DNA of 64,000 nucleotides, from positions 56,321 through 120,320 of IMG/VR virus record IMGVR_UViG_3300008119_000003; one strand, written 5' to 3'. The position numbers and the translations under genes are program-made. The notes below the pieces were generated by a model. That model was not told the DNA's origin. It searched no databases and was given only the letters and a program-made list of their open reading frames with translations. The DNA comes from a virus. Shown piece by piece: positions 12,965-58,873 of this stretch. Position 1 is the stretch's first letter, and the number at the start of each line of letters is the position of its first letter.

Positions 12965-12968
12965 TAAC

Positions 12969-13384: not shown

Positions 13385-13392
13385 GTTTAAAT

Positions 13393-13423: not shown

Positions 13424-13445
13424 TCTAAACCTAAATAAGTTAGAC

Positions 13446-16238: not shown

Positions 16239-16254
16239 TCTTAACTAATATACA

Positions 16255-36926: not shown

Positions 36927-36938
36927 TAAACTAAAAAT

Positions 36939-37496: not shown

Positions 37497-37529
37497 TCCA
37501 CGTTTGTTGGTTTAGCGTGACTAAACAAG

Positions 37530-37562
37530 AGAGACCCTCAGGCAAAGGCTTGGGGGTTTTTC
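37530..37562 (+). terminator. intrinsic terminator
   Basis: AGACCCUCAGGC-AAAG-GCUUGGGGGUUU followed by U residues. Confidence 0.7.
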
Positions 37563-37636
37563 ACTATATTTGTTTAGTATTCAATGATGTATTACTTTTA
37601 AAGCTAGAATAAATTTCGTAAATTGTACTAAGGCGT

Positions 37637-38224
37637 ATGCAGAATTTTAAAAAACCAGACCTCAATGCCCCGCGATATAGAGCCCCAAAAGTTAAGTTAA
37701 TTACTAAACAGTATCTTAAAGACTTTAAAGCTAAGTATCCAGAACATAAAGACGTTGACTACGCGTTAACTAAAAAAATAGTAAAGGCTTTTAACGAAAA
37801 GCTTTGGAGAGAAACTATTGAAAATAGAGATGGTATAGAGTTACCTGAGAACCTAGGTTATTTATTTATAGGGGCTTGCCAGCAACCTACTAAGGAAAAC
37901 ATAGATTATGGTAAGTCAATTAAATACGGTGTTAGAGTTACTCATAAGAACTGGGATACAGATGGTTACATTAGTAAGATATTCTATAGTAACTATCAGT
38001 CTCGATATAAATTACGGGACAGGGTTCTATGGGGATTTACCGCAAACCGATATTTTAAACGAGCTGTTACTAAAGAGTTTCGAGATAACTGGAAGAAGTT
38101 TATAGTAATAGATAAGATGTTTACAGTATCAAAGCTCTTTGATAAAGCAAGTATGAAGAATCGAATAGCTAGACAGACAAAAGAAAAGTTAAAAGAATAT
38201 AACGAATTTGATCTAGAAGATTAA
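37637..38224 (+). CDS. IHF/HU-like protein at the head of the crAss-like tail module
   Basis: KKIVKAFNEKL...DGIELPENLGYLFI; lies before the tail ring genes. Confidence 0.7.
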   Translation: MQNFKKPDLNAPRYRAPKVKLITKQYLKDFKAKYPEHKDVDYALTKKIVKAFNEKLWRETIENRDGIELPENLGYLFIGACQQPTKENIDYGKSIKYGVRVTHKNWDTDGYISKIFYSNYQSRYKLRDRVLWGFTANRYFKRAVTKEFRDNWKKFIVIDKMFTVSKLFDKASMKNRIARQTKEKLKEYNEFDLED

Positions 38225-42800: not shown

Positions 42801-45091
42801 GTAGCGTTATTAATAATACCCAATCTGCTAGTTTGATCAATAGAGGTATTAATCAGAATAACTTTACATCAGGTAAATTCTTTGCTAGCACATCCTGTAT
42901 GTACGGAGCCCTTAAAATAAGACTTCGTAACCAATACGGTCAAATAGAATCTGCTAATCAGATTACTACAGGGTGTGTTCAAAGATTTAAAGCTTCTATA
43001 AATCAGGAGCTTACACAGGCTGAAGCAGGTCAAGTAGTAGTTATAAAATCTCCTGCAATATTTGGGGGTGACACATATGTGGGTCGTTATACTGAGAAGA
43101 ATACCTTCTTCTATTTCTACGACTGGTTATATGATGTTCCTGCAGGAACAGAGATTGATTATACTCTAAAGTACATGATAACTTATCCTCGCTTCTGGGC
43201 AGACTTTACTAAGTTCTCTGCAAGCGAGTTTATGCAGAATGTTACAACAGGTATATTAGGTCTTACTTCTAATACCTTGCGACAAGCAATGCCTGCTGGA
43301 AAATATAATCTAGATATGTATGTTGGTCAATCAGATACTGGTGCAGTAGATGATCCTGGACAAGGTACTGGTTTACAAAGAGGAGTTCTTGGAGTACTAG
43401 CAGGAGGTATGTATTTATTCCAATCAGGAGTAAGAGACTTCTTTGTAGAATCTGAATACAATATTGACTTACGAGAAGAAGGAGAATTACCGGAAGAAAA
43501 GTTCTATAACCCCTATGGTTATAAAGACCTTAAAGGATTATTCGATACAAACATAATCAAGTTTGGTAATTACTTTAACTATGACATCTCTCTTGGAGTA
43601 TCTCGTACAATGAACAACTATATAACTTGGGGATCTATGCAGAATAGATCTTACAATCCGTTAGTTGCCGAGACATGTTACCAGTATTATCCTTATCGAG
43701 TAATTTATTCTTTGCCAAACAATTCTGAGGATAAGAAAGATTACTGGCAGATATTCTTAGTAAATAACTACTATGACTTTGACAGTAGGGTAACAGCATT
43801 TAAGTCTATCAATAGAAATGGCGCGATTATTCTTCAAGAGAAAGCTACGCCTCTAATGTTTAATGCTGTAGATAGTCTGCAAACTACAGCAGGTACAAAA
43901 ATTACAATTGGTGACGGAGGACTATTTAGTCAGCCTTTACAAACTTTAAGTAATGCTGACATAGAATTCCAACACGGTTCTTGTCAAGATAGATTATCCG
44001 TAATTAATACACCAGCCGGAGTATATTGGATGAGCGCTTCTCAAGGTAAAATCTTTACTGTAGCAGAAGGAATGCAACCTATCTCAGATATAGGAATGAA
44101 ATGGTGGTTCTCTAAGTACCTACACTATTTCTTGTTAGACCAATTCCCCGACTTCCCAATTGTAGGAAATCCTGTAGTAGGTATCGGTTGCCAAGCTACA
44201 TTTGATAACGAAAACCAAATTATATATTTCTCTAAAACTGACTACAAGGTTAAAGAAGAGTTTGTAAGTATGGTTACTATTCAAAAAGGAGATCAGTTCT
44301 ATTACGGTAATAATCCAATCGAACTAGGAAATCCAATCTACTTTGACAACTTATCTTGGACAATAAGCTTTGACCCTAAAATTAAAGCTTGGTTATCTTT
44401 CCACGACTGGCATCCTGAATTAGGAATCTCTAACATCAAAGGTTTCCTTACTACTAAAACTGATGCTGGAATTGGTAAGATATGGAAACACTATAATAAT
44501 ACATCTAAGTTCTGTAACTATTACGGAATAGACTATCCATTTGAGATAGACTATATCTCAGCTACCGGTCAAACTGTAACAACTACACGAAGTGTAGAGT
44601 ACTTACTAGAATGTTATATATACGATCAGGATGGTATTGACCGCTATGAAGTTCTAGACTTTAACTTTGATAAAGCTATTGTATATAACAATGAGCAAGT
44701 TTCTGGTAACTTGAGATTAAATCTTAGTCCAAAAAACAATGCTCCAGTAATTGTAAACTATCCACAGGTAGACCCAGCAACAGGTATTATAAATATCCTA
44801 TTCTCTAAAGAAGAACAGAAGTATAGATTCAATCAGTTCTGGGATTTTACAAGAGACCGTGGAGAATTTCCAACAGGAGGTGTTTTAGTACAGCAACCTA
44901 TTTGGAATACAGAACTTAACGGTTATATTCGTACATTAAATAGTAACAACATTAACTTGAATAAATCACCTTTTGAAAGAAAGAAGTTTAGACATTACGC
45001 TAATCACGTTGTGTTAATAAGAACTGTATCTGATAATGTAAAGATGCTTCTTAAGGTGACTAATAATAAATTGCTTAACTCTCCTCGCTAA
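39803..45091 (+). CDS. tail stabilisation/nozzle (muzzle) protein, P22 gp10-like
   Basis: 1762 aa; FNKGMVKD...NEPAN, GYMRDEVYAF, FGGDTY, WTISFDP..KAWLSFHDW. Confidence 0.8.
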   Translation: MAKQRGSQAGAANPAQANTSDITVNSFNKGMVKDYDVTYAPEGTWNHARNAINNSKSGDVGLIGNEPANEFCTQAPYTVIGSIPIYQDYFAIFSTNDTDSEIGIFHEPSCTYIPVVNDQCLAFNRNNLIIGDAKYKFDCTYDLYWDDGLNVSRKLNIGQVELDSYPNIYNNEPWPGVPYICNEVPAGSNADCIICENVIPLALNCEKIRLNKRMLIPCVSVSKGLSGGQLRNGSYYAVIAYSENQQRVTDYFSPSNIQALFSPNTAGSSLNISFGNLDTENFTEFQLVVVHTTDQQTVASQVGFYSTQTHSISFDYVSATLPSIPLEYIPLRTPGYDKSEAMYDVNGYLIRVAPTEKFDFNYQPFANQIEAEWVMIEQPWDYYRKGGSTVGYMRDEVYAFWIRFVYNDGKKSSSYHIPGRQAFDWELENYSPSDLDNIERSQDPNYQTKVWEVINTAYPTNLQIPLNNAPVTPGQVIASGKMGYWESTEQYPNSNPEVWDASSNPGLFTISGNNTSYDLCGKQIRHHKMPSDFLNSNGNQFGDLYVNQNTTHIRVDDYFLAANGNLTPSKPKAIRLLGVRFGNIKAPRDNNGKIIPGIVGYEILRASRQGNKTVVAKGAINNMRSYREAGAATTNSGAPFGIATGDKILYPNYVGNYLGYDFTLTNLSEQAPFVNGISPQNDPDTFFGFNPNVPAYESSYLTFHSPDTNLEYPFLSVNELKLYGQLGDKFNMEGKFEAVPGHPKEKLITNRALVIAAVAGLGIAAKAVRGQRVTSQALPLNAPIASPATATQSAIVAGGLTGFDIGAASALHLLTAAIGGTNPALNPDENAAVAAYILAQSLTAGVSSAGLAPPSLSRSLTYGDYQYVPTGVLAGNSIVTFAYYWSQGIDSILDLMYALAPYKDFVLRSVSHLNLHKMQPGNIKTAFQGSGNTRRLINDINYLKDQFQFIGNYKVNNLFRPKCVAIHLGKNLNGTIVDNPVFMQGAFTPTVFDNSVQTVGSVINNTQSASLINRGINQNNFTSGKFFASTSCMYGALKIRLRNQYGQIESANQITTGCVQRFKASINQELTQAEAGQVVVIKSPAIFGGDTYVGRYTEKNTFFYFYDWLYDVPAGTEIDYTLKYMITYPRFWADFTKFSASEFMQNVTTGILGLTSNTLRQAMPAGKYNLDMYVGQSDTGAVDDPGQGTGLQRGVLGVLAGGMYLFQSGVRDFFVESEYNIDLREEGELPEEKFYNPYGYKDLKGLFDTNIIKFGNYFNYDISLGVSRTMNNYITWGSMQNRSYNPLVAETCYQYYPYRVIYSLPNNSEDKKDYWQIFLVNNYYDFDSRVTAFKSINRNGAIILQEKATPLMFNAVDSLQTTAGTKITIGDGGLFSQPLQTLSNADIEFQHGSCQDRLSVINTPAGVYWMSASQGKIFTVAEGMQPISDIGMKWWFSKYLHYFLLDQFPDFPIVGNPVVGIGCQATFDNENQIIYFSKTDYKVKEEFVSMVTIQKGDQFYYGNNPIELGNPIYFDNLSWTISFDPKIKAWLSFHDWHPELGISNIKGFLTTKTDAGIGKIWKHYNNTSKFCNYYGIDYPFEIDYISATGQTVTTTRSVEYLLECYIYDQDGIDRYEVLDFNFDKAIVYNNEQVSGNLRLNLSPKNNAPVIVNYPQVDPATGIINILFSKEEQKYRFNQFWDFTRDRGEFPTGGVLVQQPIWNTELNGYIRTLNSNNINLNKSPFERKKFRHYANHVVLIRTVSDNVKMLLKVTNNKLLNSPR

Positions 45092-48000
45092 TGGCTAAAG
45101 TTTCGACCAAAGGTTACAAAAAAAATTCTAAGGATAAAGCGGAACCATCTCTTAGAATACCTTCATCTATTATCACAATGAAGGAAGATGACGGAACACC
45201 ATTAAAGAAAGGACCAATACTTGGTATTGATAACTTAGGTAACCAGCAGATGATGTTACCGGGTATGGACTACCAATTTCCCGGCAACTATGTAGATGAA
45301 ATACCTATGGCTAAAAGGGGAGGAACTAAAAAGGTCAAGATAGATAGTTTACCTAAGGCACAGAATGGAGAAGAGGTTACCCCTGAATATAGTTTTGTTC
45401 CACCAGACGCCGACAGGTATGGTATGAACAAATTTATACTAAAGGGCGATGATACTCAGTATGTAGATCCGGCATTGTTTCAGCAAGTACAAGATCTACA
45501 GAACAGAATCAACCCGCTTGCCCAAAGTAGTTCATCTTCTAGAAAAGAATATGAGAGAAGAGTTTTGGAAGCAATCAATAGGGTTGAACCACAAAACTAC
45601 GATGTAACAACATCAGGATACATTCCTGAATCAGTAAGACAATCGGAAGACGTTAGAAGGAACGGATTAAATGGATGTATCTCAGGAGTTTGTTACACAC
45701 TAAATGAAGCTGGTGAACCTGTAAGATATTATTCAAACTCGATGTTCCAGGATGCTATAAAGGCTGGTACTGAAAAAGATTGGGAACTTGATTTCGATAC
45801 TAAGAATATTAGCGGAGGAGATATTGTGCAATTTACAGGAGAACGTGAAGGTCCTCATCATGGGGCTCTAGTTGTACCTAATAGTGTTGTTAACAATGAA
45901 GATGGGACAATTACTTTTGAAGCGTTTATGAATTCTGGTACAGGTCCAATGTACAGAAAGACTTATACACTTGATCCTAAAGAAGACCGAGTGGACAATT
46001 TTAGCAATGAAACTATTCAGTTGATTAAACGTAAATCTCCATCTGATTTAGATAACCTTGTTGCACAAAGAGATCAATTAAAAAATCAGATAGAAGCGGC
46101 GGATCCTTCAGCTTTTAAAAAAGGACGTGCTCGTCGCTGGAACACATATATGCCTGGCGCATTTACAGAGGTAGGCGTAGATTACAGCAGATTCGATGGA
46201 CTAGACCCCGAGCGTTTAGTAGCAGGTAGTATGATGCAGAACTTAAAATTAGAAGATGCAGCACGGTTGCTAAGACAAAGTACTATATCTACTCCTAAAC
46301 CAATAGACGGAATAAATATAAAATTTGATTCAAAATATGATATTGACTATGATGCCTTACGTAAAACAGGAGGCTTTGAAAATATTCTGAATCAGATTAA
46401 TGATCCTGAATTCAAGATGAATTTCATGAAAGACATGAACATTACTAATAGAGAGTATAATGCTCTTGTATTAAATAGTTTTGGTCTTTATGGTCAGGAA
46501 AGCGGCTTTGGTACTAAGACTGGGGGGATCGAGGAAACAGATGTTGCTAGAAAGGCGGACTCTGTTGCAGAAGATATATGGTCTCGTGTTACCGGTAAAG
46601 GTGCATTCAGACGAGATGTTGATGAAGACTATAGTAGAGGATTAACTCAAGTTAAATTAAGAAACATTAAAGGTCAGGACAGAAGACAATATGGTATTGA
46701 TAAAGAATCCGTAGAGGATGATCCTACGAAAGCATTTACGGCAGCAATGATTGTTAATGCACAAAACCTACCAGAGCTAAGGAAGCTTGCTGATAAAGGA
46801 GAGACCGATGCGCTAAATATGAGTAACTATTTAGACTTCATTCCTTATATGTATAACCAACCAAACCGATTGAGAAGAGGGGATAGAAAAACTATTGAAC
46901 GAGCTTTGGCAGAAGGAGAAGATCCTGCTCAAGCGTTAGTTATTGATCCTAACTCTCCAATGGCAAATAATGAGTACGTTAAAAATGTACGTACCTATTC
47001 AGACCTACTTAAATTTATGCCGCTTGCTATAGACACGGTTCCTAAAAAATTCGGTGGACCTTTATATAAAGCACAGGATGGATTTAATTTTAGTTTTGAT
47101 CCTAGTAAATCTTTTGCTGAGAACACGGAGCTCAATAAAAGAGCTCAGATCATGGGTTGGAATTCCGTTGCAGAATATGAAAAATCGGGATGGGGGCAAA
47201 ACGAAGTAGCTTTAAAACAAAGAGCTTTAATCAACAATCCGCAGGTTCAGCAAATGGCTAAAACGGCTGCAGAAATGAATCCTGAATTAGCTAATGTACA
47301 AGCTAGACAGGATCAACTCTACGCTAATAAAACTAGTAACACCCAAAAAGCAGTTAACCAAGCTTACTATACATTAAGTAATCCTTTAGATGCTTTAGGT
47401 CAATATTCAAAATATGGGTATATACCTCAAGGTAATGTTGGTAACTATGGTTATAAGGATGATTCTGCTGGACCGGTATCACTTGCAAATACTACATTTA
47501 ATCCTTTTGCATGGGGTAATGCAGCCTACAGATTTGCTAATGAAGTTGGTAATGCTGATTCCTGGACTACAGGAAGAGGTGCTGTAAATATGACAACAGA
47601 TTTTCTAGAGGCTCTTCCATTGTTTTCTGAGGCCAGTAAAGCCGCAGAACCTGCGCTTAAATATATGGGTGAAGGATTGAATACTGCTGCAAAATACCCG
47701 GGACAGTTATATAATAATGTAGCTACGGGTAACAGCTTTATACCATATGCTTGGAAAAGTCCTGCAGTTGGGTTATCACAAGAAAAAAGTGCTGAAATGT
47801 TTAAAGGTCTTTTAAACAGTGGTAAATTAACACCTGCCGAAAATGCTTTAATAATTGAATATCAAAGTAATAGTAGACCGTTTACAGGAAGATCCACAGT
47901 TGGTGCAAATGTTTTAAATACAGAAAAGAGAGCAGCACTGAATGATATAATTAAAAAATATAACTTGGATGTTAATAGCGATGCTATATTAACAAGAAGA

Positions 48001-51000
48001 TTTAATTTTGATCGGGGTACCCTTGGCACAGGAATAGAAAATGGTAGGATGAATTTTGGGGATAGACCTACATCTTTTAGTGCAGGAGTTGGAACTGAGG
48101 GATATTCTGGTGCTCCAGATAGACTAGTTATACCTAATAGGTATGTTAAAAATATGGGTAATAATCTTTTAGCCAATCCTTACGGAAAAGTATCTGATGA
48201 AACGTTAAGTTTTCTTGAGGGTTCTGCAAAAGACTTTGCTTTAAATGCACCTAGTTTAAATGAAGCTATTATTGGCGAAAGAGAATTAATAGGTACAGGA
48301 CTAGACTTTAAGCAAATAGGTAAAGTTAAAAATGATATTGGTGGATTTGACTATGTGGTTAAACCAAAGAATATTAAAGGCGGAACAAATATTAATAGTG
48401 GTGATAAAACATTTAAGTCTGAAATAGATTGGGCTAAATGGAATCCTGAAACTCCTAATCATCCAGAACTTATTAATGAGTATAACGCTATAGAGCAGAA
48501 TACAAAAATGAGCGGGGATTGGCTAAAAAGAATAGATGGTAAAAAATGGAAACCTAGTGCAGAAGCTAAAAAAATGGGTTTGGTAGAACAGGAGTATATA
48601 ATGCAATCAAGTGATAGATTTAAAAAAGCATATCCTGAAGGATTCGAAACTACTTATAGAGGACAAAATACGGGTACCGAAGTTATGGGAGGTGGTGATA
48701 GAGGATATGACCCAAGAATTGTTTTTACTGGCGATAAGGATGTTGCTTTATCATACGCACAAACCCCTTTTAATGGTAAAAAACATTCTGGAGAATTATT
48801 TATGCCTGGTATCTCAGATCCGAGCCAACCTGCTTTCTATAAACTAATGTATCCTAAAACTAGTAAAAGTAAGACACTTACAGCTCGTAATGGTGACTGG
48901 CGATTTATAAAAGATGCTGAAATTGCAAAAGCTGTTAATCCCCATTTTACAAATACTCTTAGTACTGACGATCTTACCAAGTACTTAAGTAAGAGTGATT
49001 TAGACCTTATAAATATTAATGGTGTCAATGACTATATGGTCGGCTCAGATTTAAGAGACTTTGCTAAAAATTTTATTACGACAGGGAAAATATTTCCAAA
49101 TACAAAAATTATAAATCAATCACCAGGTAGATATTTAAAATCAGTTATAGGTAATAACGGTATGTTTGACATGAACAACCCTAATATATATAAGACGCTG
49201 CTACCTCCAGCCCTTTTAATTGGAGCAGGAGCTATCAGTCAACAGAAAGATGGTGGAGAATTACCTAAAGCACAAAATGGCAGAGACATATCTGTGCCAG
49301 ATCTAAGAAGAGTTAAGATACAGTTATTACCTAAAGCGGAGAATGGTAGTAACTTTAAACCTAGTTATGATTGGAGAAAAAGTCCTGCAGAAAATGCAGA
49401 ACTCAATAGACGAGCGCAAGTTATGGGATGGAACTCTGTTGCTGATTATGAGGCATCAGGCTGGGGACAAAATGGTTATGTTAAAGTACCTGAGGTAATC
49501 CGTCAACAAAGAATTGATAAAGGGATTCCGGCAGATCAAATACCCGAGTACGAAAAGATAGAGGAGAAGAAAATTAGTCCTGAACTAAAGTCTATTATAG
49601 ATAAACAAGAGGCTAGAAGTACCGCAGACAAAAATAAAGCAGCTAAAGAAAAGTATGATAGAGATATAAAAAACTTTAGACCTGCGCCTGTTAATGATCC
49701 AGCTGGTTTACCTAGTGTACCTATTATTGAAGCAGCGCTTATGGCTCCGGTGGCTCTTGGAGAAGCCGGATTAGCTGGACTTGGCGAATTAGCGTTTGGT
49801 GCAGCTGAGGCATCTCCGCTTATACAGAGTGCGATAGCTGGAGGAAGAGGTTTATTAAATGCTGCGCCTTCCTCAGTACCTTGGCTTAATGCTGGTAATG
49901 CATTAACATATGGATTTGGAGTACATGGTGCAAACGCTATAAGAACCGGAGAAGTTGCTAAACCTTGGATACATGCTAATGCTACAGGTAATCCAATGGA
50001 CTACGGAAACGCCTTTGCTGAAAATTTAATGACTGCTTTAGAGGTAGCACCTTTTGTTGGACCGACTGTAAAAGGAACATCAAAAATAGTGCAATCAACT
50101 GCTTCAACTTTTGCTGATAACTATAAAATCAGAGCAGAATTAGCAAAAATTCAAAATGAAGGCTTACAAGCAGGATTAAATGATTTTGAAATTGCCTATA
50201 GACAACTTAACCAAGTAGGTATAACATCTAATCAACGTAAAGGTTATGTTCCAGGAGTTTCAGAATTTTTCCATAAGTATATAACACCTTTTGGTTATAC
50301 TGGGGCAAATGAATCAAAACTTGCACAAAGTTATAAAAATATTAAAGCAGGAGGATGGGAAGAAGCATATAGACGTGGTATTGGACCAAAACCTAATACC
50401 ACTTCACAAGCAATGTTAGATTATTGGTACAATAAACATGCTAAACTAAATACTAGAGATGATGCTTGGAGAATGTATTTAGGGATGCCTCAAAAACACG
50501 GTACATTTAGTTTGGCTGATACAGCACCTGTAATGCACCCTGCTTACAAACCTGGATCTTTAGCAGGAATGGATATTTATAATATCCCTAAAAATGTAGT
50601 ATTTGAAACAAAACCGGTCGACCTTTTTAATAGTAATAAGAGAAAAGTAGATGGATTTAGTGAAGTAACTAGACGGATGGGTAGTATACCAGAAGAAGGT
50701 ATGGGGCCTCTGGATAAACCAATATTTCTAGATCGTGATATGGTGGTTATGGGAGGATACAATAAAGTATTAACTAAAGATGGATTACAATATAATGATA
50801 TATGGGATTTAGATCCGACAATTAACTTTGAAACTCTAGTACCAGGCCGCGTTAAAAAAATGATGCCTGGAAAATGGAAAGAAAAACTTTTTTATAAAGA
50901 CGTTCCTATATCAAGTGCCGCATATCATCCTAGTCATACATCTAGCGGCTATATTAATCAGCCAATGCAGGTTACTGTACCTAGACAAGTTACAATTCCA

Positions 51001-51951
51001 ACAAGTAAGTTTTTTGGAAAACCTTTTATGCTTCACGGTAATCTAGATTATACATCAGCAGATTATACTAATGATTTATTAAAAACACTTCAAGCGGAAC
51101 TGCAGGAAATTGCCCCTTTTGGTTCAGCCTCTCCATCAATTGGACGTGACTATAGAAAAGCTCTTGACTTAGAACAAAAGATAGAGTTATTAAAAAGTGG
51201 TCAATACCCTAAGTATAAAAAAGGAGGTAAGTTACCTAAAGCACAGGACGGAACCTTTGACTACTATAATGCAGCAGCAAAACTTAATACTGAGAAAAAC
51301 AGAATAGCTGGTATGAGAAATCAGATTATTCCTATTGCTATTAGTCACGATGCTACTTCAGATAATAGACCTTTTCATGTACGCCTTCCTGAAGGTCAAC
51401 CCTATTGTACAACAAGAGCATGTGAAGCAGAACGTGAAGCGGGTTTTCCTATAAAACAAGTAGCCTCAGGGTATAAACTTATGAATGAGGCAACTCCGGA
51501 AAATGGATGGTATCCTACATCATATGATAAGTTACTTCCTGGAGATATGGCACAGGTTGTAAGAAATAGCGGATTTGGTCATACAATGTTATCTACAGGT
51601 AATGTGTCTAATATGCCAGAGGGTTGGAGAGGAGATGCTGATCCAAACCAGAAAGGATTTTATTGGGATAACGGATCAGGCCAGGACTTTCAATTTGCTA
51701 GTCCTAAGTCGGAAAATCAATTAGCTGGGTGGATGAATAATGTAAAGAGGATGAACTACTATACCTATAAAGGTAATCTTCCTCAGTATGAAAAAGAATA
51801 TCAGCAAGCTATACAAAACTACTTGCATGATACTTCAGAAGGGGATAATGGACCTATGGTACCTATTGATGCAATACCTTATAAAAAACAGGGTGGTGCT
51901 GTAAAGAGAGTAAAGATAAACGGCTTACCTAAGAATTGGAAAAGCCAGTAA
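45091..51951 (+). CDS. multidomain (polyvalent) virion cargo protein with NlpC/P60-like, lysozyme-like and ART-like modules
   Basis: 2286 aa; modules separated by KxGG...LPKAQxG linkers; catalytic-like motifs are listed in the findings. Confidence 0.7.
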   Translation: MAKVSTKGYKKNSKDKAEPSLRIPSSIITMKEDDGTPLKKGPILGIDNLGNQQMMLPGMDYQFPGNYVDEIPMAKRGGTKKVKIDSLPKAQNGEEVTPEYSFVPPDADRYGMNKFILKGDDTQYVDPALFQQVQDLQNRINPLAQSSSSSRKEYERRVLEAINRVEPQNYDVTTSGYIPESVRQSEDVRRNGLNGCISGVCYTLNEAGEPVRYYSNSMFQDAIKAGTEKDWELDFDTKNISGGDIVQFTGEREGPHHGALVVPNSVVNNEDGTITFEAFMNSGTGPMYRKTYTLDPKEDRVDNFSNETIQLIKRKSPSDLDNLVAQRDQLKNQIEAADPSAFKKGRARRWNTYMPGAFTEVGVDYSRFDGLDPERLVAGSMMQNLKLEDAARLLRQSTISTPKPIDGINIKFDSKYDIDYDALRKTGGFENILNQINDPEFKMNFMKDMNITNREYNALVLNSFGLYGQESGFGTKTGGIEETDVARKADSVAEDIWSRVTGKGAFRRDVDEDYSRGLTQVKLRNIKGQDRRQYGIDKESVEDDPTKAFTAAMIVNAQNLPELRKLADKGETDALNMSNYLDFIPYMYNQPNRLRRGDRKTIERALAEGEDPAQALVIDPNSPMANNEYVKNVRTYSDLLKFMPLAIDTVPKKFGGPLYKAQDGFNFSFDPSKSFAENTELNKRAQIMGWNSVAEYEKSGWGQNEVALKQRALINNPQVQQMAKTAAEMNPELANVQARQDQLYANKTSNTQKAVNQAYYTLSNPLDALGQYSKYGYIPQGNVGNYGYKDDSAGPVSLANTTFNPFAWGNAAYRFANEVGNADSWTTGRGAVNMTTDFLEALPLFSEASKAAEPALKYMGEGLNTAAKYPGQLYNNVATGNSFIPYAWKSPAVGLSQEKSAEMFKGLLNSGKLTPAENALIIEYQSNSRPFTGRSTVGANVLNTEKRAALNDIIKKYNLDVNSDAILTRRFNFDRGTLGTGIENGRMNFGDRPTSFSAGVGTEGYSGAPDRLVIPNRYVKNMGNNLLANPYGKVSDETLSFLEGSAKDFALNAPSLNEAIIGERELIGTGLDFKQIGKVKNDIGGFDYVVKPKNIKGGTNINSGDKTFKSEIDWAKWNPETPNHPELINEYNAIEQNTKMSGDWLKRIDGKKWKPSAEAKKMGLVEQEYIMQSSDRFKKAYPEGFETTYRGQNTGTEVMGGGDRGYDPRIVFTGDKDVALSYAQTPFNGKKHSGELFMPGISDPSQPAFYKLMYPKTSKSKTLTARNGDWRFIKDAEIAKAVNPHFTNTLSTDDLTKYLSKSDLDLININGVNDYMVGSDLRDFAKNFITTGKIFPNTKIINQSPGRYLKSVIGNNGMFDMNNPNIYKTLLPPALLIGAGAISQQKDGGELPKAQNGRDISVPDLRRVKIQLLPKAENGSNFKPSYDWRKSPAENAELNRRAQVMGWNSVADYEASGWGQNGYVKVPEVIRQQRIDKGIPADQIPEYEKIEEKKISPELKSIIDKQEARSTADKNKAAKEKYDRDIKNFRPAPVNDPAGLPSVPIIEAALMAPVALGEAGLAGLGELAFGAAEASPLIQSAIAGGRGLLNAAPSSVPWLNAGNALTYGFGVHGANAIRTGEVAKPWIHANATGNPMDYGNAFAENLMTALEVAPFVGPTVKGTSKIVQSTASTFADNYKIRAELAKIQNEGLQAGLNDFEIAYRQLNQVGITSNQRKGYVPGVSEFFHKYITPFGYTGANESKLAQSYKNIKAGGWEEAYRRGIGPKPNTTSQAMLDYWYNKHAKLNTRDDAWRMYLGMPQKHGTFSLADTAPVMHPAYKPGSLAGMDIYNIPKNVVFETKPVDLFNSNKRKVDGFSEVTRRMGSIPEEGMGPLDKPIFLDRDMVVMGGYNKVLTKDGLQYNDIWDLDPTINFETLVPGRVKKMMPGKWKEKLFYKDVPISSAAYHPSHTSSGYINQPMQVTVPRQVTIPTSKFFGKPFMLHGNLDYTSADYTNDLLKTLQAELQEIAPFGSASPSIGRDYRKALDLEQKIELLKSGQYPKYKKGGKLPKAQDGTFDYYNAAAKLNTEKNRIAGMRNQIIPIAISHDATSDNRPFHVRLPEGQPYCTTRACEAEREAGFPIKQVASGYKLMNEATPENGWYPTSYDKLLPGDMAQVVRNSGFGHTMLSTGNVSNMPEGWRGDADPNQKGFYWDNGSGQDFQFASPKSENQLAGWMNNVKRMNYYTYKGNLPQYEKEYQQAIQNYLHDTSEGDNGPMVPIDAIPYKKQGGAVKRVKINGLPKNWKSQ

Positions 51952-51992
51952 AAATCAGTATCTTATAACTATAATGCTTATCTTAGCACATT

Positions 51993-54900
51993 ATGAATAA
52001 AATGATCAATCGATATAAGTCTAAGGAAGGGGGTACAATGATACCTATGCGTTTCCAAACAGGCGGAAGTAATTTATTCTTAACCATGCCTAACGGAGGG
52101 AACGTTGGCCCTATGGGGTCATCTCCTATGGGACTTCCTGAATACAGAACGGGAGCAAACTACGGTTATCCGTTTATGCAAGAAGGCGGCGGCGCAGATA
52201 TGGACGGCGATGATCAAAGCTTTTACAGCGGCCGTATGAATACTTTTATTCAAAAGATTCGTGATGCTGCTGAGAAAAATCTTGAGACTGCTATTATGGA
52301 GCAAGACCAACAACAGCCTATGGCAGCATATGGTATGAGTATGGGTAGCGATCCTATGAATTCATATGATCCGGGAAACTTAGGGATATTTGCTAAGACT
52401 GCTGACTTCATGAAGAATGCGGGTCAAGGAGCTCTATCTGGTTATATACAGCGCATGGGAGCTTTGGGTCCTAATGACTATTACTATAAGGAGAAAAACA
52501 TCTATAAAGATAAAAGTAAGGGAGCACCATTAGGTACACAAACTTTTACCGATGCTGATGGCAATCAATCTAGTATCTCTCCAGAAGAAGCTTACAATAG
52601 AGCTAACTATGCTTTATATACTAAAAAACATGGAGGAGGATTATTAAGAGCTAAGGATGGTTTAACAGGTGTGTTTGCAGGAGTTATGGATCCAGAGTTA
52701 TACAGAAGAGCTTTGGAGATGGGTCATGAGAGCATAGAAGATTATCAAAAGTCTGGCTGGGGATATGGAAAGAAACATCCACAGTATAAAGCACCTAGCT
52801 ATCCAAGTCGTGTACGTATTAATGATCCACGTACTATTAACGCTACATCAGGTAATCCTATTAACCCGAATGTAGATTTAAAAAGTGGAGATTACCATAC
52901 TGGCGTAATCGGAGATATTGCAAGAGCTGCTAGAGAGTACGGTGTTGATCCTCAGGAGTTAATAGCAATGGGTCTTCAGGAAACAAACTTAGGAAAGACT
53001 GATCCAAACTATGGTCATGTTTTAAATTATCAGGATCCTGCAAATAGAGGTGCTGCTTATGATATGGCTTTTGCTAAAACACAAAAAAATAAACTTGCTG
53101 ATGAAAAAGGATATTCAAATGACGAGGTCCGTAGAATTCAAACTTATAATGGGTTAGGTACAGTATATCCTTGGACAGAATTAGACTACCACGGATTTCC
53201 CATGAAAAGTATTTATGGAGTACCTTTAACTAATGCTGGAATCAACATGGTTGAAAATCCACTTTACGGAAAACGTATCATGGATTTACGAGACAATGTT
53301 TTAAAGAATCCTAAGAATGCTGAGTACAATCAATTTTTAGATAAGTACAATAGAGACTTGGCTAACGAAGAAGCTGTTTCCCAACAGCAACTAGGTATGT
53401 ATGATATATTTAATACATTCGGTCCTCAATATGGTAACCAGTTTAGAGATATGCTACAGGGTGCTTATAATGATTCTATTAATAATTCATTAAATTCTGA
53501 ATACATATACCCTGATGGAGATTTAAACCTAGGATACTCTGTACCTAATTTAGATAATACAAGACAAAGAAATGCTTTAGATAGATTTAATCAAGGTATA
53601 GGATATGAGCAAATCCCTTATAGAAACGGGGGAGCCCTAAAAAAGTTTACTGGGGATGAAGATGGCAGTACTACAGGAGATAACTATTGGAGCGCTGATG
53701 AAAAAGCATATTTAGATGCTCTACCTAAAGCCCAACGCGATGCTATTATATCTAAAGGAGATAAAGGACGAGAAGCTTACACAGCTTACAGAACAGCTAA
53801 TGATAAACCTAAAGCATCGCAACAATCTACTACGGCTAATAACACAGGTAATAATACAGCTAATAATACGACAACACAACAAAAAACTGTTACAAATGGA
53901 CCTGAAGTAATAGGTGGGAACGGAGATCCAAATATGCTTTATAATGGTCATAACTCAAGTAATGAGAATACAACAGTAATTAACGGAGTACGATATGCTG
54001 TAGATCCTGTCACAAGGGAGGTTCTAGGATATAATCCCCAATCTTCAGCAAGAACTCAGAATTATGACAATTACAATCCTTATGGTGCATATAATCCATA
54101 TGGTGAATATGGAAGAATGAGAGGTAGAAACTTAGGAGTCATATCTAAAAATAGACTTACTCCAGAGTTTAGAGAAAACATGTTAGCTGGTAGCTACGAT
54201 AATCCGCAACTACTTGGGGTATCAGAGATTAAAACTCGTAGGGCTATGGATCCTGGTAACAGAGTTAAGTCTATTACTTACAGCTATGGTCAACCGATAC
54301 CAGGAGGACGTACAACTATAAATAAATCTCAGCCAAATAGTTCTACACAGACTAACAGCGGTTCTAGTAGTACTACGCCTGGAAATGCTAATAATCCTAC
54401 GCCTGGAAGTTCTAGTAGTACTACGCCTAATACTTCGGTTAATCCATCAGTTAGTACGCTTACGCCAGAACAAAAAATACAGCAGGCTATGGACTTTACA
54501 TTCCGTCCAGGTCAAGGTCCTTATAGTACTCCAATAGATTTTCCAGGACTAGAAAAACCAAAAGTAGGACCTTGGGCAGATTACGGTGATGATCAACCTG
54601 TTCCTAATGTACCAGGGGCTATACCTAATGTTCCTACAGTAACAAATAATAATACTGGTTACACTCCTCCAGCTTTTGATATGAATAGATCTTTTGGTCA
54701 GATATCTAATAATGAGCTGAACTATTTTAGTACAGAGGGGGACATGAGTAATCCAGATTGGAGATCTCAAAGAATAGATAATTACGGATCAACACAATAC
54801 GGTAGTGCTAAACAGGTTGGAGATAAATGGAATAATATTAAAGGTAAACCTGTTAATGATGATAATGATATTGGTAGGAAAGGATTAACTAAGGATCAAG

Positions 54901-55967
54901 TTGCTAAAGAGTACGATAAAGTACCAGCACCATTAAAAGATATTGCTATGGACCATTTGTTTAATGCAAGTTCTGATCCTAGAATATTTACATTAGCTGC
55001 TGCAGGAGCTATTGAAATGAACGATAGTTTAATGTATAAAGATAATCCTAAACTACTTGAGGATGCATGGGCTAAGAATATTGATCTTATAAACCAGCAA
55101 TATAAAGATGATCCGCAAGCATTTACATCTGCTGTAAATGACTATAGAAAAATTATCTATAGAAAGTCAAGACAAAAAGGTAAAGATCAATATGGTAACG
55201 ATATAGATACAAAAAGTACTACTGGTCAGCCAGGTCTTCAATATAATGCATGGGAGGGAAGAACAAGTAATACAGGAGACTATCTAGATCGTACTTACTT
55301 TAATCCAGCTAATGGTTATACAGCTCCACAATACTTTAAGAAACATGGCGGAGCATTAAATAAGTTTATTAGAAGGTACGATGATGGTGGACCACTTAGC
55401 GTAAGAGATATGTCTGTCGCAGATATGCCTACGACTGATGAGATTAGTATGGACGAAATTAATCAGATACTTGGTGAAGATGCATTCAAGCCTTTTGAAA
55501 TGACAGATGCCGATAGAATCAGAGCTGTTGATAAAGGTACTGAATATGAGCAGTTAGAACCAGGAGATCTTGAAGGAATAGCTCCAGCATTCGATGTAAC
55601 AACAAAAAGAAAAAAGAAGCGTATCGGTAATCCAGAAAAAGATCTTGCCGCTATTAATCTTGCTACTAAATTTTTTAAGGGTAGGGACGCAGCATATGCT
55701 GAAACGGAATTACGTAATCGTAGCCAAGCATCTCAAGTATTTAATCCTATAAGAAGTACGGAAGGAAACTACGACATCTTATCTGGGGATTTCCGCAGAG
55801 GCAAAAGAGCAGCTGATGGTAATGATGCATTCCATTCCGGATTCGGTACTTATGCTCAAATGGGAGGTAACATGCTACAGAATTTAAAAGAAGGAGATGA
55901 AGTATATTTGACAGAGGATCAAATAAACGATATTTTAAAAAGAGGTGGTAAACTTTCATATCTATAA
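51993..55967 (+). CDS. virion cargo protein with lysozyme-like modules and xxGG linkers
   Basis: 1324 aa; AMGLQETNLG...QTYNGLG; many [YFMK]xxGG motifs. Confidence 0.65.
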   Translation: MNKMINRYKSKEGGTMIPMRFQTGGSNLFLTMPNGGNVGPMGSSPMGLPEYRTGANYGYPFMQEGGGADMDGDDQSFYSGRMNTFIQKIRDAAEKNLETAIMEQDQQQPMAAYGMSMGSDPMNSYDPGNLGIFAKTADFMKNAGQGALSGYIQRMGALGPNDYYYKEKNIYKDKSKGAPLGTQTFTDADGNQSSISPEEAYNRANYALYTKKHGGGLLRAKDGLTGVFAGVMDPELYRRALEMGHESIEDYQKSGWGYGKKHPQYKAPSYPSRVRINDPRTINATSGNPINPNVDLKSGDYHTGVIGDIARAAREYGVDPQELIAMGLQETNLGKTDPNYGHVLNYQDPANRGAAYDMAFAKTQKNKLADEKGYSNDEVRRIQTYNGLGTVYPWTELDYHGFPMKSIYGVPLTNAGINMVENPLYGKRIMDLRDNVLKNPKNAEYNQFLDKYNRDLANEEAVSQQQLGMYDIFNTFGPQYGNQFRDMLQGAYNDSINNSLNSEYIYPDGDLNLGYSVPNLDNTRQRNALDRFNQGIGYEQIPYRNGGALKKFTGDEDGSTTGDNYWSADEKAYLDALPKAQRDAIISKGDKGREAYTAYRTANDKPKASQQSTTANNTGNNTANNTTTQQKTVTNGPEVIGGNGDPNMLYNGHNSSNENTTVINGVRYAVDPVTREVLGYNPQSSARTQNYDNYNPYGAYNPYGEYGRMRGRNLGVISKNRLTPEFRENMLAGSYDNPQLLGVSEIKTRRAMDPGNRVKSITYSYGQPIPGGRTTINKSQPNSSTQTNSGSSSTTPGNANNPTPGSSSSTTPNTSVNPSVSTLTPEQKIQQAMDFTFRPGQGPYSTPIDFPGLEKPKVGPWADYGDDQPVPNVPGAIPNVPTVTNNNTGYTPPAFDMNRSFGQISNNELNYFSTEGDMSNPDWRSQRIDNYGSTQYGSAKQVGDKWNNIKGKPVNDDNDIGRKGLTKDQVAKEYDKVPAPLKDIAMDHLFNASSDPRIFTLAAAGAIEMNDSLMYKDNPKLLEDAWAKNIDLINQQYKDDPQAFTSAVNDYRKIIYRKSRQKGKDQYGNDIDTKSTTGQPGLQYNAWEGRTSNTGDYLDRTYFNPANGYTAPQYFKKHGGALNKFIRRYDDGGPLSVRDMSVADMPTTDEISMDEINQILGEDAFKPFEMTDADRIRAVDKGTEYEQLEPGDLEGIAPAFDVTTKRKKKRIGNPEKDLAAINLATKFFKGRDAAYAETELRNRSQASQVFNPIRSTEGNYDILSGDFRRGKRAADGNDAFHSGFGTYAQMGGNMLQNLKEGDEVYLTEDQINDILKRGGKLSYL

Positions 55968-55969
55968 AT

Positions 55970-58873
55970 ATGTACGGTAACAATAATAACATTAGAACGG
56001 GGAATCAAATAGCCCCGTCATATATTCCAAACACGCTTGGTAAAAAACCACTTAAAGTTCGTGATTCGTTAAGTGCTGTACCAAGAGAGGTTGCTAACCT
56101 AGAAGCAGAGGGAGGAGAAACAGTTCTTATTCCTAATAAACAGGGTGGGCCTGCTCATTACCATATTAAAGGTAAACGTCACTTCGAAGGAGGCGTAGCT
56201 TTAGCTGTTCCTGCTGAGTCTTTTATTTTCAGTGATACTAAATCAATGAGAATTAAAGACCCTGTGTTATTAGCAGAGTTTGGATTAGCAGAAAGAAAAG
56301 GAGGATATACCCCAGCAGAGATTGCAAAGAAGTACGACTTAAATACTTACCGTAAGATTTTAGCGGACCCTAATTCGGATGCGTTACAAGTTAATACAGC
56401 AGAGATGGTGATTGCTAACTATAACGTTAAGTTAGGTAAGTTAGCTATGATTCAAGAATCAATGAAAGGATTTCCGGGAGGAATAGCTACAGCATCAATG
56501 CCTTACATGGCTAAATATAATCTGGAGCCTGATATGTTTTTACCACGGGATATGAATCCACAACCTGAAGGAGCTCCTCAAGCCGGACAAGAAGAAATGA
56601 TGGAAATGCAACAAGGAGCTATGGAAAACCAACAAGCAGAAATGATGCCGCCACAAATGCCTATGGGTAAACACGGAGGACAGTTGAGCCATCTAAGACA
56701 ATATGCACCCGGTGGAACAACAGGAGAACTTGATCCTAATCAAATTGCATATAGTCCTAGAATGCAAAGAAAAATGCAACGTAGAGCTCGAAGAAATGCT
56801 GAACGCGAATATTACAACAGATACTATTCACAGCTATTAGAGCAAATACGAAACGAGCCTGAATACCCTGTATATGATAAAGCTCCTAGACCAGACGCAA
56901 GTACTGGTATATATCTTCGTAAAGACGCAAATGGTAATACTTACTATGAAGACGGTAGAGGTGTTCGTATAGATAACCTTACAACTATGTCAAGTAATAG
57001 TAATCCTGACAATTACGTATTGCAAGAAGGAGAAAAGATTGTAACTAAAAACGGTAAGCGATATATTGTAAAGAAAGTTACTAAACCTGCCGTAGCTGAT
57101 GGAACAAAGATTAAATCTAAAACTGATGCAACGGCAAAAGGAGATATCTATGAAGAAGGTGGTAAGTATTACCAAGTTCAAGAGTACGATGTAACTAAAC
57201 CTATTGCTTCAACTAAGTCTGGTAAAACTAACTATACAGGAAACCTTGATGAGGATAAAGTAAAAGCTAAGGCAATTCTTGAAAAATTACAGAAAGAAGG
57301 TGGGGCTGAATATCATAAAAGCACCTGGAAAATAGGTAATGATACCTATAAACCAGGGTGGCATATTAAAGAGGATGCTCGCAACAAAATGACTACTGCT
57401 GAAAAAGAATTTCTAACTAAATTTTTGTCTTATGGTGCAGAAGATAATGTATTAGGTGTACCTGGGGAACAGGAATACCAAGTTGCTTTACAGTCTTCTG
57501 GAAATACAGGTTTCTTTGGTTATACCGATCCTAAGTTTTACGAGTACCGTTTCTGGAAAGCTCGTAATCCAAATGGTACTACAGAAGAATGGGAAGCACT
57601 TCCAGAAACAGCTGAAGGGGATGCACCTAGTAAAACAAAGAATAGAAAGAACATGTTCTACTCTTTGGGTATGGATATAGAGGATCCACATATTAAAGCT
57701 AATATTAGTAATCCAGATAAACTATATGATCCAGCCTTTGTTAAAGGCAACAAGAGGGTTAAGACAGCCAGAGAGATTAAGGACAAAGATGGTAACATTG
57801 TAAGCAATCTTAACTATGTGGACGCCGTAGAAAATTTCTTTAATCCTGGTGAATTCCGCCCAGGATTAAGCGATGATAAAAAGTTAGGATTAGAGCATGC
57901 CGATGCATTTACATTTGATAGAAAAGTAAATCCTCTTGAGCCTACTGTAGAAGAAACAGAAAGACTTCTAGACGAGGATATAAAAAAATACTCGCCTACA
58001 TATCAGAAAGGACGACCTACTCCTGACTTTATACAGGATCGCATCTTAGAAGGTAATGCTATGAGAAATATGTATAATATCAATAGATATTATCCATCTC
58101 TTCAGTCATATGAGCCGATGCTGCCTGAGCCTGTTCCTTATAACCCTGAACAAGAAATTCAAGCCAACAACGCTTTACTTACAGAAGCATCCGATGCTTT
58201 TAGAGGTACATCTGGATCTTCACAAGCATTAGGAGCTAAGATTGCGGGAGCGTCAGGAAGTTTAGCGGATAATGTTGCTAAGATCATGGGACGATATAAT
58301 AATCTTAATGTTGGTACAGCTAATGAGTTTGCTTATAAGCAATCCGATATTATGAACGATGCTCAGAAGTTTAATGCTGGTCAAATGATGGCTTATGTAG
58401 ATAAAGTTAATACTACTAACCAAAACTACGATAATGCTAAACGTGAAGCTCGTGATGCATATGCTCAAGCTGAAGCTAATAGAATTACTAACAGAGCTAA
58501 AGCACAAGTACTTAATACAATGTATCCTGAGTATGGAATCAATCCAGCAGCAGGTGGAGAACTATTCTTTGCTCCAAGTAGAGAAATAGTAGCTAACGAG
58601 AATGCAATGCTTGCTCATAACGATGCTCAACAATTTGCTGAATTCCTAAGAGAGAATCCTGACTTAGCACAAAACTATGCTGGAGCCTTAGCAAACGTTT
58701 GGACAAAAGGTAAAAGTACTGCAGGTATGGGAAATCCTATGGATGCTGCTTTCTATAATGCTTATAGTGGAATGATGCCAGGTATGGCGGAAACACCTCC
58801 TGGAAACAATCCTAACTACTACATGGAAGAAGGAGGGAGTATTCCTTTTAACTACATAGTTGGTTTACTATAA
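55970..58873 (+). CDS. virion cargo/ejection protein
   Basis: 967 aa; LEAEGGETV...GKRHFEGGV...FIFSD N-terminal domain and helical C-terminus. Confidence 0.65.
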   Translation: MYGNNNNIRTGNQIAPSYIPNTLGKKPLKVRDSLSAVPREVANLEAEGGETVLIPNKQGGPAHYHIKGKRHFEGGVALAVPAESFIFSDTKSMRIKDPVLLAEFGLAERKGGYTPAEIAKKYDLNTYRKILADPNSDALQVNTAEMVIANYNVKLGKLAMIQESMKGFPGGIATASMPYMAKYNLEPDMFLPRDMNPQPEGAPQAGQEEMMEMQQGAMENQQAEMMPPQMPMGKHGGQLSHLRQYAPGGTTGELDPNQIAYSPRMQRKMQRRARRNAEREYYNRYYSQLLEQIRNEPEYPVYDKAPRPDASTGIYLRKDANGNTYYEDGRGVRIDNLTTMSSNSNPDNYVLQEGEKIVTKNGKRYIVKKVTKPAVADGTKIKSKTDATAKGDIYEEGGKYYQVQEYDVTKPIASTKSGKTNYTGNLDEDKVKAKAILEKLQKEGGAEYHKSTWKIGNDTYKPGWHIKEDARNKMTTAEKEFLTKFLSYGAEDNVLGVPGEQEYQVALQSSGNTGFFGYTDPKFYEYRFWKARNPNGTTEEWEALPETAEGDAPSKTKNRKNMFYSLGMDIEDPHIKANISNPDKLYDPAFVKGNKRVKTAREIKDKDGNIVSNLNYVDAVENFFNPGEFRPGLSDDKKLGLEHADAFTFDRKVNPLEPTVEETERLLDEDIKKYSPTYQKGRPTPDFIQDRILEGNAMRNMYNINRYYPSLQSYEPMLPEPVPYNPEQEIQANNALLTEASDAFRGTSGSSQALGAKIAGASGSLADNVAKIMGRYNNLNVGTANEFAYKQSDIMNDAQKFNAGQMMAYVDKVNTTNQNYDNAKREARDAYAQAEANRITNRAKAQVLNTMYPEYGINPAAGGELFFAPSREIVANENAMLAHNDAQQFAEFLRENPDLAQNYAGALANVWTKGKSTAGMGNPMDAAFYNAYSGMMPGMAETPPGNNPNYYMEEGGSIPFNYIVGLL

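Follow-up and report, generated by a model that had tools for sequence, protein, structure and literature searches.

In bacteriophage T4, a short portable peptide, the capsid-targeting sequence, directs injected proteins, including an ADP-ribosyltransferase (ART), into the head. This signal is found only at the N-terminus, where the prohead protease cuts it off at L/I-x-E. VENN of CdiA and PxxxxDPxGL of Rhs are short conserved peptides where variable toxin cassettes swap. In the Gly-Gly-X processing of adenovirus and African swine fever virus, and in double-glycine leaders, the Gly-Gly is preceded by a conserved context. Here we describe a peptide tag, composed of a Gly-Gly (GG) and typically an LPKAQ-type core, in giant proteins of a virus represented by IMG/VR record IMGVR_UViG_3300008119_000003. 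The window is the whole 64,000-nucleotide stretch analysed, bases 56321-120320 of this 120,320-bp record with 114-bp terminal repeats; the record is a complete genome of an uncultured crAss-like phage of 120 kb, and the window covers its virion half. Coordinates are those of the window, on the + strand, unless the record is named. Tags are found in P0001 (2286 amino acids (aa), 45091..51951) and P0002 (1324 aa, 51993..55967; 34 homologues, many partial), which are mosaic cargo-type proteins, and in the conserved, non-mosaic cargo-type protein P0003 (967 aa, 55970..58873; 61 collinear homologues, 44-86% identity). All three were read from their open reading frames (ORFs) and translations.

Unlike the T4 signal, to which it is unrelated in sequence, the tag exists in N-terminal, internal, and C-terminal copies. 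VENN and the Rhs peptide each stand at a single point, ahead of one C-terminal toxin, in bacterial proteins that are secreted, while the tag marks several boundaries per protein in phage virion proteins. It differs from the Gly-Gly-X systems in that the genome has no clan-CE (PF02902) or C39 peptidase, Pro is frequent after GG, and the conserved part reaches well past GG. Literature searches gave no relevant description of the LPKAQ peptide, of Gly-Gly in crAss-like virion proteins, or of proteolysis of Crassvirales cargo proteins, and the tag peptide is apparently undescribed.

As whole proteins, P0001-P0003 work like polyvalent proteins and sit where crassvirus cargo proteins sit. In the available text of PMC5512222, polyvalent proteins are those with 2-15 distinct domains in one polypeptide of a phage or conjugative element. 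P0001 has at least four separately folded parts within residues 1-1200 as modelled by AlphaFold2 (AF2), among them an ART fold and a CHAP/lysozyme look-alike. As described there for polyvalent proteins (PMC5512222), P0001 and P0002 combine many effector-type domains in one giant phage polypeptide and show extensive mosaicism. ADP-ribosyltransferase and cell-wall-attacking modules are also shared with the polyvalent proteins of that text, and the P0001 relative P0021 carries ART-PolyVal (PMC5512222). Unlike polyvalent proteins, P0001-P0003 have no PolyVal Pfam match (pieces of P0001 were searched at E<=1), and MPTase-PolyVal is absent from the genome. The link of P0001 to ART-PolyVal is transitive only, by the alignment of its residues 1107-1368 to P0021. 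A conserved junction peptide lies outside the polyvalent concept as far as the available text goes, since the words "linker" and "glycine" each occur 0 times in it (PMC5512222).

The tag is a two-part short linear motif. Part one is (aromatic/Met)-(K/Q)-x-Gly-Gly. Part two follows after 0-17 residues and is short, basic, and strand-like; it typically reads (R)VKIxS-LPKAQ-x-G, and its variants are W-L-N-K-Y-K, K-L-S-Y-L, and x-V-P-F-x-Y-x-V-G-Y. In the short form the tag reads aromatic-K-x-GG-x-LPKAQ-x-G. In the long form a basic strand-like piece is inserted between the halves, giving GG-(D)ISVPDLRRVKIxS-LPKAQ or GG-xKKVKIxS-LPKAQ. The two forms stand in tandem at P0001 residues 1385-1419. L[PY]KA[QE]xG is found at P0001 residues 87, 658, 1391, 1413, and 2048, the C-terminus of P0001 is ...KKQGGAVKRVKINGLPKNWKSQ, and residue 217 of P0002 has the degenerate LLRAKDG.

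A preliminary description of the window, made from its letters alone, had proposed that these proteins are segmented by a recurring GG/LPKAQxG linker, and the ORFs and motifs were found at the nucleotide ranges that it gave. The recurring LPKAQxG peptide is real. L[PY]KA[QE]xG occurs five times in P0001 against 0.00 expected, a count reached by 0/2000 shuffles, and of all 123 phage ORFs only those of P0001 and P0002 contain the GG...LPKAQ-type core. The listed GGs are conserved, and GG in a polar context is enriched: polar-polar-GG, a pattern chosen post hoc after the data had been seen, is observed 6, 7, and 4 times in P0001, P0002, and P0003 (1.22, 0.99, and 0.48 expected; reached by 5, 0, and 6 of 2000 shuffles). 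Bare GG, however, is not enriched in P0001 (15 vs 17.0 expected) or P0002 (14 vs 13.8) in 2000 shuffles, and is mildly enriched in P0003 (11 vs 6.4; 85/2000 shuffles reach it).

The tag sites coincide with homology breakpoints in relatives, as expected from the earlier suggestion that modules are swapped at the linkers. Twenty-nine homologues share 3-56% of the length of P0001 at 32-100% identity, often 58-84%. When 1.84 billion representatives were scanned, 1498 proteins of 185-3390 aa matched P0001 residues 1-1200 at E<=1e-3, each of which has one or few P0001 modules in common. In P0001, 41 of the 114 internal BLASTP alignment ends lie <=15 residues from a tag defined in the preliminary description (9.8% expected), and all four internal tag sites are breakpoint clusters of homology. 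In P0002, 23/68 internal alignment ends are near tags (18.7% expected), with clusters at tags 214, 546, and 1119. Homology thus places module boundaries at the four internal P0001 sites and these three P0002 sites, but only 4/21 and 3/13 of the clusters in the two proteins fall at tags. Note that breakpoints were mapped at the protein level only.

Predicted structure places tags between folded modules. The AF2 model of P0001 covered residues 1-1200 with a 51-sequence alignment and has a mean predicted local distance difference test (pLDDT) score of 70.8. Confident blocks are 20-72, 102-647, and 888-1095, with modules at pLDDT 80-95. Coil with pLDDT <50 is found at 76-101 (tag 1), 648-669 (tag 2), 1096-1110 (KNIKGG), and 771-875. 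The claim that the linkers fall at module boundaries is borne out here for tags 1 and 2 of P0001 and for the tags of P0003, all of which lie in AF2 coil between folded modules.

P0001 begins with a small beta domain (aa 20-72, 45148..45306; AF2 strands at pLDDT 80-90), which is conserved at the start of many relatives; high-scoring segment pairs (HSPs) cover 1-78..104 in 17 homologues. Tag 1, MAKRGG-TKKVKIDS-LPKAQNG (aa 73-93, 45307..45369), is of the long form, has pLDDT <50, and coincides with a breakpoint cluster at 78-114 (n=20). Module A (aa 102-647, 45394..47031), a confident fold, is a CHAP-like and lysozyme/SLT-like cell-wall hydrolase look-alike. Its ESM Atlas look-alikes, CHAP and Lysozyme_like/SLT (score 0.90), are at the level of leads, and it has no Pfam match. 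Tag 2, KKFGG-P-LYKAQDG (aa 652-664, 47044..47082), is short, has Pro after GG and pLDDT <50, and lies at a breakpoint cluster (643-665, n=8). A helical region (47098..47730) follows, which opens with a repeated unit "...ELNKRAQxMGWNSVxEYExSGWG" and ends in a tag-less seam at aa 817-877. Copies of the ELNKRAQ repeat are found at aa ~680-702 and ~1437-1459 of P0001 and aa ~235-257 of P0002. The unit of about 45 residues, "...(S/P)xxENxELN(K/R)RAQxMGWNSVxEYExSGWG", stands directly after three tags, P0001 tags 2 and 4 and P0002 tag 214 (47098-47220, 49348-49470, 52662-52780), and after many homologue tags. The seam at aa 817-877 (47539-47721) is a low-confidence helical stretch, "...DFLEALPLFSEASK...", with breakpoints (n=15) and no Gly-Gly. 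At least eight homologues have homology breakpoints at its counterparts ("NFLGARALPGD", "MDFLGLGEASK").

The next module (aa 888-1095, 47752..48375) has pLDDT mostly >90 and a predicted C3-like ADP-ribosyltransferase fold. The top Foldseek matches of the P0001 1-1200 model are the ARTs C3stau2, CDTa, iota Ia, VIP2, and ExoS (prob 0.91-1.00); their E values range from 1.9e-3 to 4e-2, none being <=1e-3, and target template modelling (TM) scores are 0.22-0.54. These matches appear to fall on aa 888-1095, where RRFNF, TSFSAG, and GERELIG, read by eye, would supply the R, S-x-S, and E-x-E residues, and the predicted module has the features of the C3-like (R-S-E) class. The C3-like ART is the most widespread module; among the matches listed, >100/150 representatives cover 850-1100. 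A short seam without LPKAQ, KPKNIKGG (aa 1093-1110, 48367..48420), comes after it, with pLDDT <50 over 1096-1110 and a breakpoint cluster at 1092-1107 (n=10). By BLASTP, the module at aa 1107-1368 (48409..49194) is related to the ART-PolyVal-bearing part of P0021: it aligns to P0021 1149-1382 (30.5% identity, E=2e-19), and P0021 1223-1373 matches PF18760 (E=5e-15).

Tags 3 and 4, QKDGG-E-LPKAQNG-RDISVPDLRRVKIQL-LPKAENG (aa 1385-1419, 49243..49347), lie at a breakpoint cluster (1358-1427, n=18). Module block C (aa 1420-2041, 49348..51213) consists of at least two exchangeable parts with a seam at ~1644-1676 (HSPs 1389-2052, 1658-2052, and 1411-1676) and has no family match in Pfam. At tag 5, YKKGG-K-LPKAQDG (aa 2042-2054, 51214..51252), HSPs end at 2052 or start at 2041-2043, and a breakpoint cluster is found at 2041-2052. 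Module D (aa 2055-2263, 51253..51879) is shared as a unit with P0008, P0017, P0009, and P0007 at 67-81% identity. A Cys...His pattern, read by eye, suggests a candidate papain/NlpC-like fold for this module, which has no Pfam match. The protein closes with the terminal tag YKKQGG-AVKRVKING-LPKNWKSQ (aa 2264-2286, 51880..51948), and the same ending is found in 17/319 proteins.

P0002 starts with a Gly/Met/Pro-rich stretch (aa 8-67, 52014..52193) with SKEGG, FQTGG, MPNGG, and MQEGG, the GGs of which are kept in 9-16 of 11-16 covering homologues. Over all P0002 GGs listed in the preliminary description, conservation is 9-20 of 11-20 covering homologues, with the exception of 1132, which is partially kept. 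A degenerate tag, TKKHGG-G-LLRAKDG (aa 210-223, 52620..52661), lies at a breakpoint cluster (207-227, n=5). Its odd-looking KKHGGGLLRAKDG (tag 214) is KKDGGSLPKAQKG in most homologues, the canonical GGSLPKAQKG. The tag PYRNGG-A-LKKFTG (aa 542-554, 53616..53654) has its GG in 14/14 homologues and a breakpoint cluster at 534-555 (n=7). In YFKKHGG-A-LNKFIRRYDDGGP (aa 1114-1134, 55332..55394), GG1119 is kept in 20/20 homologues, with a breakpoint cluster at 1110-1119 (n=11). The C-terminal tag, ILKRGG-KLSYL (aa 1314-1324, 55932..55964), is an ending found identically in 16/319 proteins.

P0003 is collinear with its homologues, unlike the mosaic P0001 and P0002. Its AF2 model was made from 48 sequences (mean pLDDT 67.8). 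After a conserved N-terminal domain, a linker carries the double tag PMGKHGG-QLSHLRQYAPGG (aa 231-249, 56660..56716; pLDDT <50 over 193-265). The C-terminal tag is YYMEEGG-SIPFNYIVGLL (aa 950-967, 58817..58870; pLDDT <50 over 913-967), with the consensus KGG-P-VPFxYxVGY. Over 61 collinear homologues, GG236, GG248, and GG955 are 97-100% conserved, GG955 being 100%, and the stretch around GG236 and GG248 (181-270) is rich in gaps and poorly conserved. P0003 has further conserved GGs (48, 74, and 862), which are absent from the preliminary list and sit inside folded parts.

The tag is found widely among relatives, for which 319 proteins were fetched, 166 of them related to P0001. There are 129 LPKAQ-type cores in 86/319 relatives; GG lies <=20 residues upstream in 98/129 and Gly is at +2 in 96/129. 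GG is in the last 30 residues of 121/166 P0001-related proteins, compared with 26.4 expected when the window of 30 is placed randomly in the same proteins. Recurrent endings are GGxVKRVKINxLPKNWKTK, GGWLNKYK, KRGGKLSYL, and GGxVPFxYxVGY. GGWL is found in 27/319 proteins, C-terminal in 14. At the other end, the core is within the first 40 residues in 25/319 relatives, in 18 of 25 without a preceding GG; 13 of these 25 start with M-(K/R)n-[VI]-[KR]-[IV]-x-x-LPKA and no GG before it (e.g., M-K-K-V-R-I-K-S-LPKAQ). The motif is kept across proteins with <50% identity. More distant crAss-like loci have one tag per protein, in degenerate form; the strict core is found in 7/27 loci. Degenerate variants such as RYGGIPKAQIG or a terminal NGGWLSKYK are found in 11 inspected loci of the 27.

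Pfam family DUF5872 (PF19197, E=4e-13) covers residues 1680-1745 of P0015, a C-terminal stretch ending in the tag ...KKQEGGSV, so that an existing Pfam family may already hold one tag variant. DUF5872 is also carried by some P0002 homologues (P0057, P0061, and P0064).

The crAss001 cargo proteins C1 (gp45) and C2 (gp46) (PDB 7QOG, 7QOI, 7QOJ, 7QOL, 8CKB), so far as described in the available text of PMC10172136, have the same genome place as P0001-P0003. This place is after the tail block/muzzle gene and before the giant RNA-polymerase-related genes. gp45 differs from P0001-P0003 in having no LPKAQ and no enzyme modules. However, [AFY][FY]GG occurs four times in gp45 (AYGG209, AFGG332, AFGG427, and AYGG562) against 0.17 expected (1/5000 shuffles). 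These aromatic-Gly-Gly tags flank the segments that the available account reports as bound to the tail barrel (214-245) and the portal (425-552) (PMC10172136). Segment 214-245 begins four residues after AYGG, the portal-bound domain begins at A425-F426-G427-G428-W429, and the next gp45 tag lies 10 residues beyond 552. The numbering agrees, since the PDB chain of gp45 is the same 842-residue sequence as in GenBank. The reported range 425-552 therefore spans the Gly-Gly-Trp bond in mature particles (PMC10172136, as available). GGWLN of gp45 is also the start of the GGWLNKYK ending of P0001 relatives. In the available text of the crAss001 atlas (PMC10172136), the tags are not mentioned and "cleav" and "proteoly" each occur 0 times. 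A profile of 48 P0003 homologues gave one chance-level match in the PDB (E=1.7), and the cargo-protein Pfam model was matched by 0/48 P0003 family members.

Among the proteins of the genome are a major capsid protein of crAss type (PF23898, E=1e-31), a portal protein matching phrog_6547 (E=1e-93), and a large terminase (phrog_6681). The nearest cultured phage by portal similarity is Leptolyngbya phage Lbo-JY46 (33.6% identity), followed by Cellulophaga and crAss phages (~25-27%). Gene order over the window and genome is structural genes, a 1762-aa virion protein, P0001-P0003, and further giants. The 1762-aa protein (39803..45091; phrog_37948 "virion structural protein", E=2e-33) is directly upstream of the tagged genes, is itself tag-free, and lacks the LPKAQ core. 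It may be the "muzzle" by its position; BLASTP against crAss001 gp44 gave no match. P0001-P0003 are probably packed into the particle and injected, as suggested by their position beside the tail genes and the crAss001 precedent. Pfam and PHROGs assigned no family to P0001-P0003, and six pieces of P0001 run against Pfam at E<=1 yielded no usable match. No match was found by tblastn of P0001 and P0003 against 50,697 GenBank phage records, and PDB sequence searches (phmmer) with P0001, P0002, and P0003 gave 0 matches.

Downstream, the next protein (58936-62220, 1094 aa) has 11 GG (5.4 expected) with the tag-like contexts KFGGD, KTKQGGY, and LNYGGK. The last window ORF (62220-64000) overruns the record end and appears to resume at record 41-3970 across the 114-bp repeat; joined over the record ends, it would be one gene of ~1.9 kaa. 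A 1908-aa ORF near the record start matches crAss001 gp49. Outside the window, a 4815-aa ORF (record 3970-18417) with HExxH at residue 1507 matches both crAss001 gp50 and gp47, so that two RNA-polymerase-related giants are seemingly fused in it. Neither tRNA nor tmRNA genes are found in window 1-64000.

The reading that we tentatively favour, at a little under an even chance, is that the tag is a portable handle and hinge which marks module ends and is read in trans. P0001 and P0002 are chains of independently folding, exchangeable modules, and each module would carry its own handle made of a flexible Gly-Gly hinge and a recognition strand. This handle would be recognised in trans by a conserved partner while cargo is loaded, anchored, or ejected in order, and the tag would stay uncut in the particle. 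Every module would bring its own copy, any recombinant would therefore keep a working label, and in the favoured reading this is why seams and tags coincide. Support comes from the presence of the tag in predicted disordered stretches and at protein starts, joints, and ends across hundreds of relatives, from its restriction to these proteins within this phage, from its conservation as peptide rather than DNA, and from its coincidence with the sites of module swaps. The "capsid-docking tag" offered by the preliminary description fits the position-independence of the peptide as a candidate role, for which no receptor was found.

Several points weigh against this reading. A receptor for the tag was not found, and binding is a prediction only. 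The tags have no structure in the AF2 models, as would be expected just as much of a passive linker. Breakpoint clusters without a tag are the majority (17/21 in P0001, 10/13 in P0002), and the HSP ends counted above are not independent events. Likewise, the orthologue sets behind the counts are not independent, and the N-termini of the relatives are metagenomic gene calls. As to C1 of crAss001, no sequence or profile similarity to its family was found for P0001-P0003, homology is not established, and hhalign of the P0003 profile against gp45 gave a probability of 0.19%. Foldseek against the PDB gave 0 matches at E<=1e-3, and BFVD gave weak leads to "Cargo protein 1 compact domain" proteins (prob 0.99-1.00, 177 columns, E 0.04-0.4). 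Finally, a processing enzyme may exist, since zincin-type HExxH is found in 17/28 P0001 homologues and a DUF2201_N/PhageMetallopep-like protein, a metallopeptidase-like gene product, is encoded elsewhere in the genome. A complex prediction of the portal (916 aa) with P0001 1375-1425, both without alignments, scored 0.00 and weighs neither way. The lowest E values in BFVD belong to a Podoviridae protein (1.8e-5) and a structural protein of Cellulophaga phi4:1 (1.1e-4). Because of the hhalign probability, we dropped the idea that the N-terminal domain of P0003 corresponds to the domain by which C1 binds the portal; the BFVD leads remain.

The preliminary description interpreted the linkers as di-glycine protease sites that release separate effectors, and what stands of this is the position of the linkers between folded, partly enzyme-like modules and the swaps found there. 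That the tags are cleaved is unproven, and some findings speak against it. In this reading the giants would be split into separate effectors by a protease of phage or host, either within the procapsid or once injected, comparable to the trimming of Alt and the internal proteins by the prohead protease of T4. We regard this as rather unlikely, though it has several facts on its side. The tags are exposed, disordered, and between modules, and natural product-like genes exist, some opening with the post-GG half (including one of Lbo-JY46) and some ending shortly after GG. The HExxH of homologues and the metallopeptidase-like gene would also fit. Processing by zincin-like peptidases is a proposed theme, and autoprocessing was proposed by Iyer et al., in the available text on polyvalent proteins (PMC5512222). 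The crAss001 2018 paper, in its available text, reports gel bands from 15 to >300 kDa and a "moderate discrepancy" between predicted and observed virion protein sizes (PMC6235969). Yet Pro stands right after GG in P0001 tag 2, 4/98 LPKAQ-type tags, crAss001 AYGGP, and 18/64 C-terminal tags of P0003 orthologues. N-terminal copies without GG (13 proteins) have nothing to release, and C-terminal copies, strongly conserved, would free only 6-17 residues. The portal segment of crAss001 C1, at the range reported in the available text (425-552), spans G428-W429 (PMC10172136). P0001-P0003 have no HExxH, and the peptidase families MPTase-PolyVal, S78, C48, C39, ClpP, and M23 have no match in the genome. 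For PF02902 (C48) and PF03412 (C39) nothing was found at E<=0.1 while positive controls worked; PF00770 (adenain) was not searched. The only predicted peptidase found in the genome is a 397-aa protein (record 36484-37677, minus strand), outside the window and the virion block, which matches DUF2201_N "putative metallopeptidase" (E=2e-16), VWA-like DUF2201 (E=4e-17), and PhageMetallopep (E=5e-5). The P0003 N-terminal domain as an M23-type Gly-Gly peptidase was rejected, as PF01551 gave no match. Cross-linking at the conserved Lys, Gln, and Gly-Gly was rejected too, since Gln is lost in the C-terminal variants and no evidence was found.

Cutting could also be combined with docking. The tag would then be a clade-wide cargo code, in which the label docks a module in the procapsid and is afterwards cut in the head or host, releasing effectors. 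We consider this improbable. If true, it would be a motif-directed polyprotein system in a tailed phage, and it would explain why parts of crAss001 C1 are found on both sides of the portal. The tag may instead be a passive hinge, a flexible linker that lets modules unfold and thread the tail singly, with its conservation due to recombination and descent; this too is unlikely. Low pLDDT, the absence of secondary structure, and Gly-Gly plus Pro are what is typical of linkers, and the published crAss001 model, in the available text, has cargo unfold in part as it is ejected (PMC10172136). But a passive linker needs no conserved sequence of 7-20 residues, and the motif is kept across proteins of <50% identity while synonymous sites vary. 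Tags are also found at the extreme N- and C-termini, where a hinge is unneeded, and many seams do without one. The preliminary description further allowed that the linkers serve as recombination points. As a DNA-level signal, in which the conserved stretch is homologous DNA for cassette exchange and the peptide is a by-product, this is weak and very improbable, although tags coincide with homology breakpoints. An analogous proposal exists for the VENN boundary of CdiA toxins. The six tag copies in P0001 mostly use the commonest codons of the genome and differ synonymously at K, Q, G, A, and L, the longest nucleotide run common to them is ~14 nt, and tag variants of different sequence occupy the same positions. 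The synonymous variation among copies implies that selection acts on the peptide.

Crass-type phages rank among the most abundant known viruses. The way in which they take up and expel megadaltons of protein cargo is an open question, for which the tag is a concrete, mutable handle. A culturable system for it may exist, since an annotated 484-aa post-tail gene (13868-15322, minus strand) of the cultured cyanophage Lbo-JY46 (PP438436) begins with a tag, MKIRIIGLPKAQIG, which like the 13 protein openings above has no GG before the core; a literature search gave nothing on this phage. A tag common to the starts, joints, and ends of otherwise unrelated modules points to a recognition step that they share as cargo is loaded, anchored, ejected in order, or processed, and would account for the free shuffling of effector modules without loss of delivery. 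Among the modules of this phage are predicted cell-wall hydrolases and ADP-ribosyltransferases, whose target would be the bacterial host. For practical use, the tag gives a simple sequence rule by which cargo proteins may be found and divided into modules for expression.

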